Below, one piece after another: positions 3,438 through 19,571 of a stretch of 19,571 nt of DNA. Under the pieces are notes generated by a model. That model was not told the origin of the DNA. It saw only the letters and a list, made by a program, of their open reading frames with translations, and searched no databases. Numbering within the stretch: position 1 is the stretch's first letter; each line of letters begins with the position of its first letter. A program made the position numbers and the translations under genes. Origin of the DNA: Xenococcus sp. MO_188.B8 (lineage in GTDB: Bacteria > Cyanobacteriota > Cyanobacteriia > Cyanobacteriales > Xenococcaceae); assembly GCA_030065615.1 (NCBI GenBank), contig JASJDR010000158.1:1-19571 (forward strand), read 5' to 3'.

Positions 3438-3824
3438 TTACCAGATAAGATCAACATCATAGAGAGAAAACTTTTCATCTGCTGTAATGATCGGCAGATT
3501 TTTAATTCTCCCTTGAGCAATTAAAAGGCGATCGAATGGGTCTTTGTGGTGATTCTGTAAATTACTAATTTCAAGAACATCGTTTATGCCAATAGAGAGA
3601 CGAACAAAATCATAATGCTGAACGCGATCTGGAATGTATGATTTTGCCGGTTCGGGTAAAGGAAGTTTGCCAAGCTGGTATTTAATCACAATCTCCCATG
3701 CACTAACCACACTGAAAAAGACAATATTTTCAGGATTGCTGATGATAGAACGGGCTGTAGCTGAAAGCTTGTCGTCATCAGTGACCCACCAGAGAAAGGC
3801 GTTAGTATCTAAAAGTACCTGCAT
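3438..3824 (-). CDS. vapC: PIN-domain toxin, VapC-type (type II toxin-antitoxin)
   Basis: 128 aa. N-terminal LLDTNAFLWW with the first PIN acidic residue, SVVSAWEIVIK, and C-terminal DPFDRLLIAQ...ITAD. This is the typical VapC layout. It lies 8 nt downstream of a small antitoxin-like ORF. Confidence 0.9.
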   Translation of the reverse strand: MQVLLDTNAFLWWVTDDDKLSATARSIISNPENIVFFSVVSAWEIVIKYQLGKLPLPEPAKSYIPDRVQHYDFVRLSIGINDVLEISNLQNHHKDPFDRLLIAQGRIKNLPIITADEKFSLYDVDLIW

Positions 3825-3832
3825 TGATGTGA

Positions 3833-4099
3833 TTATCCTTCACCTTCAAAAGCAGCAAGAATATCTGAAGGAAGAGGATCGTCAAAATCATCAGGAACGA
3901 CAAAACGACCTTTATCAATTCCTGGCACTCGCATTTTAGATGTTCTTGAACCTGAGTCATCAGGAACTTTAGGGGAAGGAACTAACCGAGCCTTTTCTTC
4001 CCCGTTTGAAAAAATCACAATTTCCTCTCCCTGAAGCACTTGAGAGAATAATTGTGAAAACTGTTGTTCAGCCTCTCGACGGTCTACATGAATGGTCAT
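3833..4099 (-). CDS. Type II antitoxin partnering VapC, with a Phd/YefM-like N-terminus
   Basis: 88 aa. The N-terminus has the pattern IHVDRREAEQQFSQLFSQVLQGEEIVIFSNGEEKARLVP. The C-terminus is acidic (DDFDDPLPSDILAAFEG). It sits immediately upstream of vapC in the same orientation. Confidence 0.8.
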   Translation of the reverse strand: MTIHVDRREAEQQFSQLFSQVLQGEEIVIFSNGEEKARLVPSPKVPDDSGSRTSKMRVPGIDKGRFVVPDDFDDPLPSDILAAFEGEG

Positions 4100-12756: not shown

Positions 12757-12866
12757 TCTAAAGTCTATTGACCATGATTTAACTCAACATGAATTTAACA
12801 GTTAATATCATGTTGCCATATGTATCTTAAAAATCCAATAATTTTTTGACTATTATCCTTGCTGAG

Positions 12867-12900
12867 AAAGTCTACTAGAATGTTCATTTCAGTAGACTTT
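12867..12900 (+). terminator. 10-bp perfect hairpin downstream of the 12043 gene
   Basis: AAAGTCTACT, a 14-nt loop, then AGTAGACTTT, followed by TCC. The T-run is partly within the stem. Confidence 0.4.
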
Positions 12901-13017
12901 TCCAGAGCAATTTCGGCGATCGCTTTTTCAAGGCTAAAAAGTATACTATTATGGTTTACTTAATCTAAGTATATTTTTAGTATCATCATATGAGTTAAAT
13001 ATATTTTATCAGCCAAT

Positions 13018-13611
13018 ATGCTCCTCGGTTATCATCGCGTCAGCACTAAAGATCAAAGTCCACAACTTCAGATTGATGCTCTGCAAGAATATGGTTGTGA
13101 ACGATTCTATTCTGATGTGGTCAGTGGGGCAAAAGCGTCGCGTCCTGGTCTTGACGAGATGCTCAAAGAAGCCCGACCCAAAGATGTCATCGTTGTCTGG
13201 AAACTTGACCGCCTGGGGCGATCTCTCAAGCATCTGGTTGATCTGGTTGGAGAACTCAATGAACGTAAAATCGGATTGAAAAGTCTCAACGACCCTATCG
13301 ACACCACTACCCCTCAAGGAATGCTGGTGTTTAACATCTTTGCTGCCTTGGGAGAGTTTGAGCGCGAACTGATACGCGAGCGTACTAATGCGGGATTAGC
13401 CGCCGCTAGAGCCAGCGGCAGAGTCGGTGGACGTAAACCTGGACTCTCGCCAGATGCTGAACGTAAAGCTCGTATCGCTGCCTCCTACTATGAAGAAGGC
13501 ATGACCATAAAGAAGATTCTGACTGACTTGAGTATATCGAGACGGACACTCTACAAGTATCTTGACCATCGTGGCGTGAAAACTAGAGCTTACAAAAAGC
13601 AAAGCGATTAA
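13018..13611 (+). CDS. Serine recombinase (resolvase/invertase family)
   Basis: 197 aa. The catalytic-Ser motif is GYHRVSTKDQ. Other motifs are VWKLDRLGRS and FAALGEFERELIRERT. The C-terminal HTH reads ISRRTLYKYL. Confidence 0.92.
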   Translation: MLLGYHRVSTKDQSPQLQIDALQEYGCERFYSDVVSGAKASRPGLDEMLKEARPKDVIVVWKLDRLGRSLKHLVDLVGELNERKIGLKSLNDPIDTTTPQGMLVFNIFAALGEFERELIRERTNAGLAAARASGRVGGRKPGLSPDAERKARIAASYYEEGMTIKKILTDLSISRRTLYKYLDHRGVKTRAYKKQSD

Positions 13612-13774
13612 GTGTGACGACCCAAAATCATAATCGGCTCAATAGAAAAATTTTTGAAGCAGACAATTCTAAATATCCAATCCAAATCCAAAAGATGTAA
13701 GATGTTTAGCAGCTTTTAGAATAATTTTGTAAGATTAAAGCAGAAATAATACTTACAAACTTAATCATTGATAT

Positions 13775-14209
13775 ATGAGTCATGAGTTATTAACTGCCCA
13801 AGCCTTATTGAATATTGCTTTAGGTGGAATCGTAGGAAACGCTGCAAGTGATGGTGTCAGAAAATTAGGAAAACAATTATGGCAGAGAATAAGAAACCGT
13901 TTGTTGCAAAATCAACCCACTATAGAAGCAGAAATAGTTAATTTTGAACAAAGCCCTATTGCAGAGAATACAAAACTGCTAGAAGATTTTCTTCAAGTCG
14001 AAATGCACAAAGACAAAGAATTTGCCGAAGCAATTAGCAATTTAGGCAGGGAAATTTCTCATGCTAATGGAGGTAGTATAACTAATAAAAATATTAAAGC
14101 AGAAGGTAATGCGGTTGCTGCTGCAATGATAGATGCACCGAATTCTAGAATAGGAGGATCGGATAATCATTATCACTTGGGAAAGGAACAAGCCCAGATG
14201 AAATTCTAG
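13775..14209 (+). CDS. Helical N-terminal module (144 aa) that is probably the N-terminus of the downstream STAND NTPase
   Basis: ORF track, frame 2. It overlaps by 43 nt the frame-1 reading frame that carries the NB-ARC domain. No catalytic motif was recognised. Confidence 0.65.
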   Translation: MSHELLTAQALLNIALGGIVGNAASDGVRKLGKQLWQRIRNRLLQNQPTIEAEIVNFEQSPIAENTKLLEDFLQVEMHKDKEFAEAISNLGREISHANGGSITNKNIKAEGNAVAAAMIDAPNSRIGGSDNHYHLGKEQAQMKF

Positions 14210-16701
14210 AGACTATTCATAGAATACAACGGGCTAATTCTCAAACTTCTGTTTCTACAAATATTTATACTAACCCACCGAATTTAGAAAACTGGGTAGA
14301 AAGAAAACAAGAAATAGAGACGATTAAAGCTTGGTTAAATAATCCACAAATTACTACAGTAGGAATTACTCAAGCTAATACTTTAGGAATTCAAGGTTTG
14401 GGTGGTGTAGGCAAGTCTGCTTTAGCTGCTTATTTGTATCATTCTCTAGATTTTGAAGCTAAATTCTGGGCTGATGTTAGTTTAAAACCAGATTTTACAG
14501 TTTTTGCCGAACAAGCAATTAGAGCGTTAGGAGGAAGAGTTTTTTATCCTATTGATGTAACTCAATTAATAAATAATTTACTTCACCTATTAAGTCAGCA
14601 TCGTTGTTTATTAGTAGTTGATAACTTAGAAACTCTTTTAGACAATAATAGAAATTGGCAAGATGAAAACTACGAGCAATTTTTTAATTGTTGGCAACAA
14701 CAGGGTATAAACAGTACTCTCTTAATTACTACTCAAGACAAACCGAAATGTTTTCCAGGGTTACAACAATGGTATTCCTTGGGAGGAATGAAACTTGAAG
14801 AAGGAATGAGCTTACTTAACAAATTAGCCATCAAAGGAACATCAAAAGAACTTAAGACATTTGTTAAATATGTAGATGGGCATCCTTTAACTATTAAATT
14901 AGTAGCTGGATATCTAAATGAATATTGCGACGGCGAGTTAAACCAGGTTACAGAATTAGGTCTAGAACAGTTCGATTTAGCTTACGTAGAAGCAGAAGGA
15001 TTACATCGTAATAAACAAGATGCTCGTCTATCTTGGATTATTCAGCAACACTTAAACAAACTGAATTTAGAACAATTAGAATTTTTGATTAATTTAAGCG
15101 TATATCGTTTGCCTTTTAATCGCAAAGCAGCAAATTATATATGGGGTAAGTCAGAAATAAATGGCTCTGTAATCCCAAAAAAACTACAAGAATTTTGTAA
15201 TCGTTCTTTGCTCATTAAAACTAGAGATAATAAATTTCAATTTGAGTCTCTAGTACAAAGATATATTCAAAAGCAAGTCAGCAATTTTACTAATGCTCAC
15301 AATAAAGCTATCGAATATTATATAGCTTCTTTCAAAAGTGAAGAAAATTGGCAAAATCTAGAAGATATTAAAGAATATCTAGAAACAATACATCACTACA
15401 ATGAATTAAAAGAATACGCTTTAGCTAATGAAGTATTGTGCCAATGTCAAGATTTTCTGATGTTAAAAGGTCATTATGCAATTTTAGTTGAAGCTCTTCA
15501 AGATATTGTAGTTGAATGGAAAAATATTGATAACAATAATGATTCAAACTTTGCTTATGCACTAAATTTATTAGGATGTTCACATATTCGTTTAGGGAAC
15601 TATTCCCAAGCAATTGAATATTGCCAAGAGTCTTTTAATATTTTCCAAGAAATCAATAGTATATACGGAATGATAAGGTCTCTAGGAAATATAGCAGGTA
15701 TTTTTGTATCTTTAGATAAATATCAACAAGCGAAAAACTGTGTTCTCCAATCATTAGAGATTCAGCAAAACATTGATGAGAATCCTGATAGAGCGAAGTC
15801 TTTAAATACTCTAGGGATAATTTGCAGGAAACTTGGAGAGTTTGATGCTGCTATCAACTATTTTAATCAATCATTAGTAATTCTTCAAAATTTTCAAGAG
15901 AGATACTTTGAATCAATTGCTTTGAATAACATAGGAGACACTAATTTAGTAATTAATAATATAGATGATGCAATAGAAAATTATCAAAGGGCATATAATA
16001 TTCAACAAGAAATTGGCGATAGAGATGGTATTGCCAGAAGCAAAAGCTCTCTTGGAAATGCTTATCTTAAAATCGGTGATTTTAGACGAGCTATAGAATT
16101 ATTTCAAGAATCTTTGTTTATTAAACAACAAATTGGCTCAAAACCTGGTGAAGCAGTAGCATTGGGAAGTTTGGGGGATGCTCATTATTTTTCTGGGGAG
16201 TATGAAAGAGCAATTGATTGCTATGAGCAATGTTTAAGCATTCAACAGAATATGGGCGAAATTTCCAATGTCAGTCAAACGTTAGGAAAGTTGGGCAACA
16301 CTTTAGGTCTTTTGAAACAATATGAAGATGCCATTGCTCGCTTTGAACAATCACTATCTATTTCACAACAAATTGGCGACGATAAATGTGCAGGTACAAC
16401 GTTAAATAACTTAGGTGATATATTCTATAAATTAGGTAGGTATGATAGCGCAATTAAATATTATTACGATTCATTGGATGCTAAACAAACTGCTAGACAA
16501 AAAATTGGAAATACTCACATTCTGGATGAACCTATTGCAAGTACTTGGTTCAATATAGGAGATACCCAAACACAATTACAGCGATCTTTTGAAGCTATAT
16601 CAGCATATAGAAACGCAAAAAGAATCTATCAAATTTTAGAACTAGAAGAAAATATAAAAGATTGCGATCGTGCTATTCAAGAATTAGAAGATATTGAGTA
16701 A
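14167..16701 (+). CDS. STAND NTPase with NB-ARC (AP-ATPase) and TPR repeats; this reading frame has no usable start of its own
   Basis: Frame 1 is open from 14167. The P-loop is TLGIQGLGGVGKSALA and Walker B is CLLVVDNLE. The RNBS-B-like motif is LLITTQDK and the GLPL-like motif is DGHPLTIKLVAGYL. About nine 40-aa TPR units of the LNNLG..Y...G.Y..AI.YY..SL type follow. The track's TTG 14398 start falls inside the P-loop strand, so the true N-terminus must lie upstream. Confidence 0.85.
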   Translation, partial: SLSLGKGTSPDEILETIHRIQRANSQTSVSTNIYTNPPNLENWVERKQEIETIKAWLNNPQITTVGITQANTLGIQGLGGVGKSALAAYLYHSLDFEAKFWADVSLKPDFTVFAEQAIRALGGRVFYPIDVTQLINNLLHLLSQHRCLLVVDNLETLLDNNRNWQDENYEQFFNCWQQQGINSTLLITTQDKPKCFPGLQQWYSLGGMKLEEGMSLLNKLAIKGTSKELKTFVKYVDGHPLTIKLVAGYLNEYCDGELNQVTELGLEQFDLAYVEAEGLHRNKQDARLSWIIQQHLNKLNLEQLEFLINLSVYRLPFNRKAANYIWGKSEINGSVIPKKLQEFCNRSLLIKTRDNKFQFESLVQRYIQKQVSNFTNAHNKAIEYYIASFKSEENWQNLEDIKEYLETIHHYNELKEYALANEVLCQCQDFLMLKGHYAILVEALQDIVVEWKNIDNNNDSNFAYALNLLGCSHIRLGNYSQAIEYCQESFNIFQEINSIYGMIRSLGNIAGIFVSLDKYQQAKNCVLQSLEIQQNIDENPDRAKSLNTLGIICRKLGEFDAAINYFNQSLVILQNFQERYFESIALNNIGDTNLVINNIDDAIENYQRAYNIQQEIGDRDGIARSKSSLGNAYLKIGDFRRAIELFQESLFIKQQIGSKPGEAVALGSLGDAHYFSGEYERAIDCYEQCLSIQQNMGEISNVSQTLGKLGNTLGLLKQYEDAIARFEQSLSISQQIGDDKCAGTTLNNLGDIFYKLGRYDSAIKYYYDSLDAKQTARQKIGNTHILDEPIASTWFNIGDTQTQLQRSFEAISAYRNAKRIYQILELEENIKDCDRAIQELEDIE
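14179..14185 (+). promoter_or_regulatory. Candidate -1 ribosomal frameshift heptamer G_GGA_AAG joining the two STAND segments
   Basis: The zero frame reads TTG GGA AAG, giving an X_XXY_YYZ pattern. It lies after the last -1-frame stop (TAA 14164-14166) and before the zero-frame stop (TAG 14207-14209). AGGAGG lies at 14152-14157. No convincing downstream structure was seen. It may instead be a 1-nt indel. Confidence 0.4.
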
Positions 16702-17017
16702 CGAATTTATAGTATTGCTTTCAGGTGTTGGTATAGCAACGGAGAAATTTTGGTCGGTAAGGGATTTTTTGATGCCAACTGTCCCACTTTTGATGATTGG
16801 ATATTGAATAAAATATCGTCTGTAATAACCATTTAGCAATAGTTTCAGAAAAAACTGTCCCAGTAAAAGGCTAAAGTGGGACACTAGCTGAAGAACGATT
16901 ATTTTTGTTATGAGCTGATCGCCAGCAAATTTGATTCTCAAAATTGAACTCCTTTATTTATAAGGGTTTCAGAACTTACAGCCGTTTTCAATTGAATAGA
17001 CTACGCTTTTAATTAAT

Positions 17018-17052
17018 TAGCTCGTAGCTCTAAGCTATAAGCTGTAGGCTTT
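17018..17052 (+). repeat. Five imperfect tandem heptamers
   Basis: TAGCTCG TAGCTCT AAGCTAT AAGCTGT AGGCTTT, read directly. Confidence 0.6.
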
Positions 17053-17073
17053 AAATAAACGAAGTTATTGGTT

Positions 17074-17148
17074 GAGCTGTGTACTTGGAGACTTGTTCGC
17101 ACAGTTCTTAGGGGGCGACGCGGGAGCAATCCCGCCGACCTACCCGAT
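17074..17148 (+). mobile_element. Group II intron 3' remnant (domain V and domain VI), with no reverse transcriptase ORF
   Basis: A 34-nt domain V-like hairpin spans 17074-17107: GAGCTGTGT/ACTTG-GAGA-CTTGT/TC/GCACAGTTC. It has the AGC triad, a GNRA loop and a 2-nt bulge; the upper helix has two U-U mismatches. A domain VI-like helix spans 17111-17145 with a GCGGGA-GCAA-TCCCGC tip. A bulged A in CCTACCC (17142) lies 7 nt before a ..GAT end at 17148. Confidence 0.5.
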
Positions 17149-17247
17149 CTACAATAAGTTTTTCTGGTAGCTGAATCTATCGCCAAGCTTGGAATTTACC
17201 GATGTCAGTACTGACCTGCACACACTTATTGGCTAATCTGTTTGTTC

Positions 17248-19011
17248 TTACCTACCTTCTTCTGGAATTTCTATTTTATATAAGTTCCTTACTCTCATCT
17301 CATTTAATGGGTTTTGCTTTGCTATTCTGATAAGTGCATTTTCAGTATTTTCTTTTATTGTTTGATATTTTTGAGAACTATCTTCATTTGTGCTTGCTAA
17401 ATTATTAAAAATCAAAAGCCCTTTTTTGATTTTATAAACCATATTTTTAGGGTTTGATATCATCCAATCATAGAGTTCATCCTCACTGAGCGAACTTAAA
17501 TAATTAAGGTGTTTTATACTCCATCCTTGAGTTCGTGCAATTTCATCAAGAATTTTATCAAGGTTAAAAATTTCTGAAGCACCTAAAATGTCTTTGATTT
17601 TACTGCGTAGGCTTGAGTTCTTTATCTCAGGTACTATCCAGAATTCATCTGGATCATCCTCAAGTAAAGCCTGTCTATGAAACCCTAAATAGTTTTCAAT
17701 ATAAGCAGATACGTCATCACCAAATTTCTCAAGAAAATTTATTGTATGATCAAATTGTGAAAGACTTATTTTACCTAAACTATCATCCAATACACCTCGC
17801 ATGGCTGATTTTATCTCATCTAAGTTTGGCTCAAATGAATTACGATAAAGTAGCCAAACACAACTAAGTTGAGCATCAGCATTTTTGCTCTGGTGGTCTT
17901 GATTGATTTTCTTTATTTCCTCTTTAAAAACTTGTTCATCTAAGTATCCATTCATAAATAGCCCAATAAGACAATCATCATAATTTTGTGGATAAAGAGT
18001 CAGCTTACGAGCAATTTCATTCCATTCTTCTTCCACTTCAGACAATTGTTGCTTCTTCTCATCATTTGATGAAAATGAATACCAAGTAGTATTTTTTATG
18101 CTCTTACTTATAAATGATAGAGATAGATTATTTTCTGAATTAAAGAATGCCCAACAAAATACCGTAAGTTTTACTAATACTTCTTTTTGTAAACTAGGTT
18201 CAGTATCTTTGATCAAGTCCCATATCTTATCTTTACCCCACTGAAGTTTTTTAAATATACGAATATTCGATATATTTAGAATACGAAGAACATCGAGCAG
18301 TTCCTCAAAATATGTATCTTGAGGTTTAAATACTACGGACAGATTATCTCTTATTGTGGGCTTGTATTCAATTTCCAGATCGACAATTTTTTCCCGATAC
18401 TTATTAAAATCTTTTAGCTCATCACCTTCTAGTGTTTTATAATTAAATATCAGGATAACCTTGCACCCTTTTCTATGACAAAGTTCGTCAACTAAGCCCA
18501 TTATCTGCTTTATAGTTAAATCTTTTTCTTTCCGCTCAATATCATCCAAACAAATAAGGTACTTATTGATAAGTCCATACTCAGCTAAATTAAGTATTGA
18601 AGAGAGTTGATTTGATTTAGGTAATATCTTTGCTATTTGTGAAAATGAACCCAGTGTTCTTAGAAAGTTTTTCCCTTTTGATTGTCCTCTAAGAATTAAC
18701 TCCCAAGTCTTATTTTCGTTTCTGGAATAGGCTTCAAGTTCACTAACAAAGTTCTCTGGAGGCTTTAATGGTTCACCCACAGAAAAAATCTTGGATTTTA
18801 ATTGTGATAAATCATGTAAACCAAATAATGAAACATAAGAATAAGCCGTTTGGTTTAGTGCTTTATTAGCCTTATTCTCTACTTTTTCCTGAACGTATTC
18901 GTCCCAAAAGTATGTTTTTCCAATACCCCATGCGCCTCTTAAAACAAGAACCGACAGTTTTTCATCATAAATAAATGAATTCAGTGTCTCTTCTATAATC
19001 GATTTATTCAT
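17248..19011 (-). CDS. KAP-family P-loop NTPase (587 aa)
   Basis: Walker A is LRGAWGIGKTYFW, the GxWGxGKT hallmark of KAP NTPases. Walker B is YLICLDDIERKE. I could not see the transmembrane insert described for many KAP members. The C-terminal ~400 aa have no recognised motif. Confidence 0.85.
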   Translation of the reverse strand: MNKSIIEETLNSFIYDEKLSVLVLRGAWGIGKTYFWDEYVQEKVENKANKALNQTAYSYVSLFGLHDLSQLKSKIFSVGEPLKPPENFVSELEAYSRNENKTWELILRGQSKGKNFLRTLGSFSQIAKILPKSNQLSSILNLAEYGLINKYLICLDDIERKEKDLTIKQIMGLVDELCHRKGCKVILIFNYKTLEGDELKDFNKYREKIVDLEIEYKPTIRDNLSVVFKPQDTYFEELLDVLRILNISNIRIFKKLQWGKDKIWDLIKDTEPSLQKEVLVKLTVFCWAFFNSENNLSLSFISKSIKNTTWYSFSSNDEKKQQLSEVEEEWNEIARKLTLYPQNYDDCLIGLFMNGYLDEQVFKEEIKKINQDHQSKNADAQLSCVWLLYRNSFEPNLDEIKSAMRGVLDDSLGKISLSQFDHTINFLEKFGDDVSAYIENYLGFHRQALLEDDPDEFWIVPEIKNSSLRSKIKDILGASEIFNLDKILDEIARTQGWSIKHLNYLSSLSEDELYDWMISNPKNMVYKIKKGLLIFNNLASTNEDSSQKYQTIKENTENALIRIAKQNPLNEMRVRNLYKIEIPEEGR

Positions 19012-19197
19012 CAGGTCGCGACAGGTTTTATGGATTAAAGTTGATTCAGCGGCACTGTACCAACTTGTAAAACTAAAGCCTAACTTTCAAATTCTGAGAT
19101 GTCGATCAAGATATTAATAAACCCAAGTAGATAGTCACAGTCACTCTCGAAAAAAGTTTTCAATACACTTGGTAGAAAACAAAATCACCTTGACCCC

Positions 19198-19243
19198 TGC
19201 CCCCACGACGCGATTCAATAAAAAATGCGGTGCTATGGGGGCA
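19198..19243. repeat. 8-bp perfect inverted repeat just upstream of the recombinase start
   Basis: TGCCCCCA at 19198-19205 and TGGGGGCA at 19236-19243, separated by 30 nt. It sits at the point where the sequence becomes GC-richer. Confidence 0.4.
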
Positions 19244-19250
19244 AACGGCA

Positions 19251-19571
19251 ATGAAAATAGACCGTCACGGTCGCGCCAAGATTCTCACCCAGTACGAAAT
19301 TCAACTGTTATTCAACGAAGGTTTCACCCTTAACCCCATAAGAGACAGAACTCTATTCGCCATCTGTCTCTATACCGCCTGTCGCATCAACGAATGCGTC
19401 ACTCTCCACACCAGAGACATCTACGACAGCCGCAAGCATGTCCGCCCTCACCTTCTAATCCGCAAAGGTCACACCAAGGGCAAACTGGCAACCCGCACCA
19501 TCCCCATCATCGAAGACTTAAAAGTACGCCTCAAACAATACAAACCACCCCAGCCCAAAGGCTATCTGTTC
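19251..19571 (+). CDS. Tyrosine recombinase/integrase, N-terminal 107 codons (runs off the right edge)
   Basis: My own translation from ATG 19251 reads MKIDRHGRAKILTQYEIQLLFNEG...RDRTLFAICLYTACRINECVTLHTRDI...IRKGHTKGKLATRTIPI...GYLF. This matches the box I region of the catalytic domain, with the conserved Arg in TACRINE. It is absent from the track because it is open-ended. Confidence 0.85.
   Translation, partial: MKIDRHGRAKILTQYEIQLLFNEGFTLNPIRDRTLFAICLYTACRINECVTLHTRDIYDSRKHVRPHLLIRKGHTKGKLATRTIPIIEDLKVRLKQYKPPQPKGYLF

Follow-up and report, generated by a model that had tools for sequence, protein, structure and literature searches.

How is an NLR-type NTPase gene expressed when the open reading frame (ORF) listed for it begins within its own Walker A motif? 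The question is raised by a metagenome-assembled contig of about 19.6 kb from a metagenome-assembled genome of Xenococcus sp. (Pleurocapsales, cyanobacteria), analysed here over essentially its whole length (19,571 nt, the window). On the plus strand of the window, an ORF of 144 aa, which encodes a small helical domain that we term the N-module, is overlapped by the -1-frame reading of an ORF encoding an NB-ARC domain and a TPR array. The NB-ARC ORF as listed begins MGGVGKS, that is, inside the Walker A motif. In the original prediction, drawn from the DNA of the window, the NB-ARC/TPR ORF was treated as a separate gene. The ORF is present and ends at 16701, but frame analysis shows it to be the -1-frame continuation of the 144-aa ORF. 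Judged from the DNA and its relatives, the two ORFs form one predicted gene, whose reading moves to the -1 frame at the slippery heptamer G_GGA_AAG (Table 1).

The geometry of the junction in the window is simple. The -1 frame is open from 14167, the 0-frame stop lies at 14207-14209, and the two ORFs overlap by 43 nt (14167-14209). There the 0-frame codons TTG GGA AAG place the heptamer in the exact X_XXY_YYZ register. The first ATG, GTG, or TTG of the -1 frame is a Leu codon inside the Walker A motif, 73 codons past the heptamer, in a frame that remains open for 840 codons. A -1 slip at the heptamer would give a protein of 975 aa made up of the N-module, a linker, NB-ARC, and TPR. The part read in the -1 frame opens with a conserved linker of ~60 aa, followed by the NB-ARC domain, whose Walker A motif GGVGKS lies at 14401-14418, and then by a winged-helix region and the TPR array. 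NB-ARC was matched at 26.8 bits (Pfam cut-off 23.5) and TPR_12 at 2.9e-61, and an NB-ARC domain with P-loop and Walker B motifs (GGVGKS and LLVVDNLE), succeeded by a repeat sensor, is the layout of a STAND/NLR-like NTPase. The heptamer itself belongs, with A_AAA_AAG and C_CCA_AAG, to the most efficient -1 motifs in Escherichia coli (PMC4066793). As a side observation on the repeat sensor, the DNA of the TPR array has a 120-nt periodicity between 15600 and 16400, with repeat copies 65-85% identical, in keeping with the internal repeat conservation described for NLRs of bacteria and fungi.

DNA of related loci was gathered from collections of genomes and metagenomes, or traced through protein records, and the junction was compared across them. 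In every locus with both parts, the NB-ARC frame was -1 relative to the N-module frame (tblastn), except for one fused sequence and the loci with an in-frame stop that are treated below. A canonical heptamer lay in register inside the overlap at 27 of the 31 non-identical -1 junctions (G_GGA_AAG at 16 loci, A_AAA_AAG at 9, and C_CCA_AAG at 2), and the permitted shift window, i.e., the overlap, often spanned just 16 nt. The 0-frame stop of the relatives usually falls 0-1 codon past the heptamer. The site is present in two isolate genomes, Hyella patelloides LEGE 07179 and Crocosphaera chwakensis CCY0110, and spans several cyanobacterial orders, with Symploca an example outside the Pleurocapsales. 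Conservation of the linker protein sequence starts at the heptamer (GKGLSP[DE]EI...STNLITTPPNLDNWVERKEEIE). The first ATG, GTG, or TTG of the -1 frame comes 47-73 codons past the heptamer in nearly all loci, and none precedes the P-loop in the window, L004, or L021. In the 12 complete loci the -1 ORF is unbroken for 690-1006 codons. Paralogous N-module-NLR genes were also observed, two or more per genome (L010/L015, L014/L016, and L017/L018), each with its own slippery site and sometimes with a different heptamer type. Because the paralogues each keep their own site, the junction arrangement survives duplication.

Elsewhere in the same genes, such heptamers occur at a background rate of 11 in 20,126 codons, or 0.00055 per codon. 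A slippery [LV]-G-K sequence also needs minority codons, with Leu codons ending in G making up 24%, Val codons ending in G 13%, GGA 38%, and AAG 30%.

A -1 junction in a metagenome-assembled contig could also be a sequencing or assembly error, for instance a 1-nt indel in the GGGAAAGG run, or the mark of a STAND pseudogene, and the fast turnover of NLR genes and the several decayed relatives would fit the latter. We consider this scarcely credible. The same -1 junction recurs in 31 non-identical sequences from many assemblies, with two isolate genomes among them and three heptamers in use, and the -1 ORF is intact in 12 loci. Between the window and 10 relatives, the synonymous substitution rate (dS) was 1.0-2.9, which is saturated, and the ratio of nonsynonymous to synonymous rates (dN/dS) was 0.14-0.24 for the post-shift NLR part and 0.14-0.29 for the N-module; a dN/dS of ~0.15-0.25 at dS >1 is not what decay would leave. 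Both parts of the gene are, as judged from these substitution rates, under purifying selection. Sequencing error and simple pseudogenisation are thus untenable for the family, because the junction recurs, dS is saturated at low dN/dS, the -1 ORFs are intact, and isolate genomes carry the site.

A second alternative is that two separate genes are present, a small gene of the Bell/BASS type and then an NLR gene with its own non-canonical start (for instance, the conserved ATT or ATA ~8 codons past the heptamer) or one translated by termination-reinitiation. Small helical-domain genes upstream of, and often overlapping, NLR genes have been described in filamentous bacteria (Dyrka et al. preprint), the ~135-aa proteins of the wider family nearly all stand alone and differ in their C-terminal motifs, and the start chosen by NCBI for P0002 is an ATT. 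We nevertheless find this arrangement unlikely: almost all loci lack an ATG, GTG, or TTG for 47-73 codons, amino-acid conservation in the -1 frame sets in at the heptamer itself (GKGLSP[DE]EI...), reinitiation leaves three in-register heptamers unexplained, and one lineage is fused in a single frame (L001). BASS pairs, moreover, are defined by a tail motif that the small protein shares with the N terminus of the NLR; here, by eye, the linker (GLSPEEIV...STNLITTPPNLDNW) had no similarity to the tail (..KAEGNAVAAAKIDAPNSRFGGSD..).

The arrangement does resemble the Bell/BASS-NLR pairs (Dyrka et al. 2020). In both, a helical domain of ~100 aa with a short tail lies collinear with and just upstream of an NB-ARC/TPR gene, the hosts include cyanobacteria with multicellular or aggregate habits, and an activated NLR would template a small death effector. 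The difference is that the NLR ORF here has neither a start of its own nor a second tail motif and would instead carry the whole small protein at its N terminus by recoding.

The frame change could alternatively take place at the RNA level, through RNA polymerase slippage on an A-run that adds one extra base to the mRNA. Transcriptional slippage is known for dnaX and insertion sequence (IS) elements in some bacteria (PMC5009743), and the 9 loci with A_AAA_AAG have runs of 6-7 A. Most loci, the window included, have just AAA within GGGAAAG or CCCAAAG, too short for efficient slippage, and the X_XXY_YYZ register, which is relevant to tRNA re-pairing alone, is kept. Slippage by the polymerase is therefore very improbable as the general explanation, and a slip by the ribosome is the reading that we prefer.

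Two kinds of variant locus bear on this reading. At three more distant loci, from an uncultured cyanobacterium, Aerosakkonema funiforme, and pMIC7113.04, a finished plasmid of Allocoleopsis franciscana PCC 7113, a UGA closes the N-module ORF and the NLR goes on in the same frame. The UGA occurs twice as TGA-CTG among the three, and no ATG, GTG, or TTG was found before the conserved linker, or before the P-loop in L021 and L052. Although limited to three loci, this pattern is suggestive of stop-codon readthrough as a possible counterpart of the -1 frameshift, a second route to two products, and would fit selection for two products that share their N terminus. The relation between the UGA and frameshift loci recalls that between gag-pol of murine leukemia virus (readthrough) and of human immunodeficiency virus (frameshift). 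In the fused variant, found at ~1410-1440 of L001 (with the same sequence in L002, L003, and L036), the N-module and NB-ARC are read in a single frame. This variant keeps a heptamer, GAG GGA AAG, after which the -1 frame stops at once (GGG AAA GGG TGA), and its NLR is truncated at 453 aa. As an anecdote, the fused lineage would reverse which of the two products needs the shift. Such a reversed arrangement is known for dnaX.

The N-module was modelled with AlphaFold2 (AF2) from 52 sequences as five helices spanning residues 8-97 (predicted local distance difference test score [pLDDT] of ~85-90), followed by a disordered tail of ~45 aa (residues 101-144, pLDDT <50). Hydrophobicity peaks in its N-terminal segment LLTAQALLNIALGGIVGNA, where the Kyte-Doolittle mean reaches 1.42, under the usual transmembrane threshold. 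The close homologues form 54 clusters, almost all of them stand-alone proteins of 129-145 aa, 47 of which end in [GPKVE]K plus 0-2 residues; many share a contig with NB-ARC/TPR homologues. An exhaustive profile search extended the family to 107 representative clusters, nearly all 120-155 aa long and stand-alone. Among the 90 clusters of typical length (100-165 aa), 19 have the K-type tail and the rest have other short C-terminal motifs (such as ..NVSF and ..IGGS). We also observed that the wider ~135-aa stand-alone proteins (P0282-P0386) group by C-terminal motif, with groups ending in ..HEKK and ..INLGK, in ..VGKIEGDNVSF, in ..IGGS, and in ..NPP, which may mean different modes of coupling to neighbouring NLRs. 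Related NLRs have TIR, caspase, trypsin, CHAT, or HTH domains in precomputed Pfam lists, with the HTH confirmed as N-terminal in two. Because NLRs of the family carry such domains, the N-module is placed by its position in the predicted protein in an effector or adaptor slot. Assignment of the N-module to the Death-like, HeLo/MLKL-like, or EAD folds was considered and dropped, as Pfam, NCBIfam, PADLOC, and Foldseek offered no usable match; the lone Pfam EAD match was a weak one to EAD10 in 1 of the 52 members (E = 0.051).

Several observations weigh against a conserved, programmed shift with an effector at its 5' end. The 0-frame stop of the window lies 7 codons past the heptamer; the adjacent stop of most relatives is missing there, its TAA having become CAA. 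Four of the 31 -1 loci lack a canonical heptamer, namely L009 (a deletion variant), L017 from Hyella (G_GTA_AAG), and the metagenome contigs L026 and L031 (both G_GGG_GAG). The NLR part has decayed in L011 (a stop in the P-loop), L015, L016, L023, and L031, and single copies can thus be pseudogenes. The counts do not represent independent events, since a single order with common ancestry supplies the majority of the loci. For the region 3' of the heptamer, RNAalifold returned zero pairs and no consensus structure, and a column test over 27 loci found no compensatory changes in the candidate stem. Finally, the N-module had no usable match in Pfam (searched with the single protein and the 52 members), in NCBIfam, in PADLOC, or by Foldseek of the AF2 model against the PDB (best E = 2.2), the structure comparison proposed in the original prediction, and its effector role is a guess.

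Some potential stimulators are nevertheless present. A candidate stem in the window would start 5 nt past the heptamer, and per-sequence folds gave z = -1.6 and -2.3. An equivalent stem (GCCCAGA/UCUGGGC or AGCCC/GGGCU) is predicted 5-6 nt past the heptamer in ~12 of the 27 loci, in two registers. Upstream, a GGAGG is found at a variable 15-24 nt from the heptamer. For most relatives, the chief context could be the 0-frame stop that adjoins the heptamer. On balance, the comparison of loci makes it probable that recoding at the NLR site is genuine and productive.

From this arrangement we infer that programmed recoding would give two products, the free N-module and an N-module-NLR fusion. Normal decoding would end at 14207-14209 with the free 144-aa helical N-module, and a fraction of ribosomes would slip -1 on the heptamer at 14179-14185 to give the 975-aa fusion; the slip is presumed to be ribosomal and productive, with free N-modules expected to be plentiful and NLR fusions few. 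The further steps are speculative. A trigger perceived by the TPR sensor might lead the NB-ARC domain to oligomerise and so cluster the attached N-modules, and the clustered N-modules might recruit or activate the free pool by homotypic contact. The free pool would then be the effector, possibly at the membrane via the hydrophobic N-terminal helix.

This specific functional model, in which a pool of N-modules is seeded by the fusion, is offered tentatively. It is conceivable, if doubtful, that recoding, mostly by the -1 shift and elsewhere by UGA readthrough, is a designed route to an executioner and a nucleator from one gene. We are no more confident that the abundant free N-module would be a latent death effector or adaptor on which the rare triggered fusion seeds assembly, in the way that CARD or PYD nucleation proceeds. 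In a bolder variant, frameshift efficiency at A_AAG, dependent on tRNA-Lys, would respond to infection and tune the level of the sensor. Alternatively, the shift may keep a toxic sensor scarce, or the free N-module may act as a brake.

The proposed scheme has several known parallels. The tau/gamma pair of E. coli dnaX, OrfA-OrfAB of IS3/IS911, and gag-pol likewise use an X_XXY_YYZ heptamer ending in A_AAG, and in OrfA/OrfAB and gag/gag-pol the short product also arises by standard decoding and the long fusion by the shift, with a 0-frame stop by the site. In contrast to dnaX, IS3, and gag-pol, which serve replication, transposition, or a virus, the gene here would encode a cellular, immune-type STAND NTPase. 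As to stimulators, neither a conserved pseudoknot or stem-loop nor an internal Shine-Dalgarno sequence in a suitable place is demonstrable for it. The coupling through EAD domains (Kaur, Burroughs, Iyer, and Aravind 2020) is similar in that a small helical adaptor occurs on an NTPase and as a separate copy, with homotypic interaction proposed; it differs in that the free copy here lacks a further effector domain, both copies would come from one gene, and the Pfam EAD models are unmatched. Amplification by ASC/CARD or HET-S/NWD2 offers a further parallel, of which the N-module scheme would be a single-gene prokaryotic counterpart.

Likeness to antiviral STAND (Avs) sensors had been suggested in the original prediction. 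The tripartite architecture of Avs and bacterial NACHT proteins, in which a STAND NTPase sits between an effector or adaptor at the N terminus and a TPR-like sensor at the C terminus, is indeed shared. PADLOC, however, gave no Avs match for the NLR and only the generic TPR models PDLC01169, PDLC01171, and C3a198, and the protein further differs from Avs in its NB-ARC, which is of the type of the cyanobacterial NLR radiation, in an N-terminal domain without an enzymatic signature, and in its recoded expression.

Table 1. Coordinates of features in the window; the last three rows give the in-frame UGA sites of related loci, each in the locus named
Feature	Coordinates	Strand	Details
Small serine recombinase (resolvase), 197 aa	13018-13611	+	Pfam Resolvase 2.4e-46; HTH_7 3.9e-07; 48.5% G+C
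0-frame ORF, 144 aa (N-module)	13775-14209	+	Predicted product of standard decoding
Slippery heptamer G_GGA_AAG	14179-14185	+	X_XXY_YYZ register of the 0 frame
-1-frame NB-ARC/TPR continuation	14185-16701	+	Pfam NB-ARC, TPR
Candidate stimulatory stem	14191-14235	+	AGCCC 14191-14195 / GGGCU 14231-14235
Spacer between convergent genes, 546 nt	16702-17247		
Group II intron domains V-VI	17072-17148	+	Rfam RF00029, 46.7 bits (cut-off 40)
KAP-family P-loop NTPase, 587 aa	17248-19011	-	Pfam KAP_NTPase 4.7e-08, 33.1 bits
KAP upstream region	19012-19126	-	Conserved with the closest KAP homologue
8-bp inverted repeat	19198-19243		TGCCCCCA (at 19198) / TGGGGGCA (at 19236); just 5' of the recombinase start
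Tyrosine recombinase fragment	19251-19571 (contig end)	+	Pfam Phage_integrase 2e-06; 49.8% G+C
UGA locus L021	8406-8417		Uncultured cyanobacterium
UGA locus L047	2905-2916		Aerosakkonema funiforme
UGA locus L052	3229-3240		Allocoleopsis franciscana PCC 7113, finished plasmid pMIC7113.04

The NLR gene faces a second P-loop NTPase gene, of the KAP family, on the minus strand. The Pfam match covers residues 18-239 (cut-off 20 bits), and the motifs GxWGxGKT and DDxER are invariant across 50 KAP homologues. We found 181 homologues, full-length at ~580 aa, in cyanobacteria and proteobacteria, and a plasmid search placed the family on 143 plasmids; identity is 50-74% in cyanobacteria and ~30% on Pseudomonas, Salmonella, and Klebsiella plasmids. 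The AF2 model (pLDDT 85) has a P-loop domain and an all-helical C-terminal region of ~300 aa. Foldseek of this model returned generic AAA+/ORC/TnsC matches to the P-loop part alone, and a PDB sequence search was empty. Transmembrane helices in or beside the P-loop domain are common in the KAP family, though not universal. None was detected in the window protein, where the top 19-residue Kyte-Doolittle mean is 0.94 and an insert at residues 110-135 is modelled with low confidence and is not hydrophobic; in this it is unlike EF_KAP and the classic KAP proteins.

The 115 nt upstream of the KAP gene have 77% identity to L042 1852-1963, directly 5' of the KAP gene there. The KAP cassette, as delimited by this comparison, thus spans ~17248-19126 on the minus strand, with the conserved upstream region marking its right edge, and would encode a soluble NTPase acting on its own. 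The KAP genes of L042, L043, and L045 have 31-34% G+C though their flanks have 39%, 46%, or 55%, a steadily low value as expected for a horizontally moving gene and a sign that the movement was recent. In L043, a large serine recombinase and an intact group II intron reverse transcriptase were also observed within 6 kb of KAP.

The original prediction did not recognise the combination as a named defence system; KAP by itself, however, corresponds to an already listed candidate. When PADLOC was run, as had been proposed, the NLR had only the generic TPR matches given above, and KAP matched the candidate PDC-S49 at E = 1.5e-22, with residues 19-374 aligned to positions 25-363 of the 624-position profile and the C-terminal third of KAP unaligned. 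Like the KAP antiphage proteins and PDC-S49, the window protein combines a KAP domain with a ~300-aa C-terminal region of no known fold, in a single-gene unit near a small serine recombinase and with widespread full-length homologues, plasmids included; the PDC-S49 profile aligns with its N-terminal two thirds only. In a 2026 PLoS Biol study (PMC13552941), small serine recombinases are reported as markers of antiphage genes nearby, and protection against phage is shown for KAP P-loop NTPases whose C-terminal regions are of unknown kind. Homology points to the window KAP as a stand-alone defence-type gene of an already known class.

Are the two NTPases one module? The original prediction had proposed a horizontally acquired, possibly mobilisable two-NTPase module, bracketed by the recombinases. 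Its assignment of both proteins to conflict-type families is borne out (Pfam NB-ARC and KAP_NTPase), its genes (the resolvase, the 144-aa ORF, NB-ARC/TPR, the 546-nt spacer with an intron remnant, KAP, and the tyrosine recombinase) all lie where it placed them, and the two NTPase genes are adjacent and convergent in an AT-rich block with recombinases on both sides, the small serine type being a known marker of defence genes (PMC13552941). The pairing itself fails the co-occurrence test. No KAP, resolvase, or integrase homologue was found by tblastn in ~40-45 related NLR loci, several with flanks of 8-10 kb, and no NB-ARC gene adjoins any of 3 KAP homologues that have long flanks. Copies of KAP occur singly, in differing surroundings rich in mobile elements, and the match in PADLOC is to a candidate made of one gene. 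On the NLR side, the nearest relative (L050, from Pleurocapsa, with an N-module 78% identical) is chromosomal, among SbcCD, LspA, and BipA genes, and other related NLR loci adjoin toxin-antitoxin pairs. The convergent orientation, moreover, excludes co-transcription. As for mobility of the block, recombinase neighbours and the horizontal-type G+C content of KAP would fit an acquired island; around the block, the search for att-like or flanking direct repeats gave chance-level matches only, so that movement as a unit is no more than a possibility. No near-identical DNA was found in the plasmid collection. A two-NTPase module is accordingly highly implausible. The block is better described, from the comparison of loci, as an accessory patch of defence-type genes, comprising two apparently independent single-gene units and a scrap of intron and not a two-gene system, for which "defence islet beside recombinase" is a reasonable description.

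The AT-richness of the block was also part of the original prediction. The block (13612-19250) has 33.0% G+C against 40.1% for the remaining window, with 31.7% in the NLR gene and 31.4% in KAP. This contrast is real but modest because other stretches of the contig are AT-rich too, including 1-2200 (34.7%) and a 233-aa ORF (35.3%); the GC-rich outliers are the two recombinase genes and the DUF3854 gene (45.1%). The 8-bp inverted repeat at the shift in composition is present but unremarkable, and it was dropped as a boundary mark, with 71 such repeats in the window and ~21 in shuffled sequence. A scan for promoters and terminators found nothing exceeding shuffles.

Between the convergent gene ends, the group II intron match comprises domains V-VI alone, compared with the domains I-VI and usually an encoded protein of a group II intron. 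At a permissive threshold (E<=1), Rfam gave no match to domains I-IV, nor to any other family, in 16500-17400, and the plus strand upstream of the match has no open frame of any length. The piece is an orphan 3' remnant. The tyrosine recombinase ORF opens directly with the catalytic domain, residue 11 matching profile position 2, and lacks the N-terminal core-binding domain. The contig breaks inside this gene, perhaps owing to an element that is repeated in the assembly.

The contig looks plasmid-like, with genes for a 984-aa DUF3854 protein, ParA, a PIN/Phd pair, and Uma2. Its KAP and 144-aa proteins are both on record as hypothetical proteins of Xenococcus sp. MO_188.B8. It is not closed as a circle, as the integrase ORF at the right end has no continuation at the start of the window and another ORF exits the left end. 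The latter, on the minus strand at 1-2200, is a long ORF of >700 aa rich in coiled-coil-like sequence. The PIN toxin and Phd/YefM antitoxin pair lies at 3438-4099 (minus strand), and toxin-antitoxin pairs likewise occur beside several related NLR loci (L001, L004, L047, L048, and L049). The resolvase may serve plasmid resolution or mark the adjacent defence genes. Between a 237-aa ORF and the resolvase gene lies a near-perfect 21-nt palindrome (12862-12905, arms 81% complementary, 2-nt gap), which could be a res-type site or a terminator.

In the limited literature searched, which gives no proof of novelty, surveys and reviews of bacterial frameshifting make no mention of NLR, NB-ARC, or STAND genes, and work on bacterial NLR and STAND proteins makes none of frameshifting in host genes. 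To our knowledge, conserved programmed frameshifting is rare in cellular, non-mobile bacterial genes, with dnaX and a handful of others as the examples. The rest of the block (the KAP NTPase, the intron scrap, and the recombinases) is ordinary defence-island content. If recoding at the NLR site is true, current annotation of these loci as a "hypothetical protein" and a 5'-truncated "tetratricopeptide repeat protein" would be wrong, and surveys of NLR N-terminal domains and of overlapping Bell-NLR pairs may miss fusions. The parallel use of an in-frame UGA would then point independently to selection on the ratio of the two products. Bacterial NLRs of one clade, spread over several cyanobacterial orders, would have a built-in two-product logic, in which a free effector-slot domain is made alongside a sensor-bound copy.

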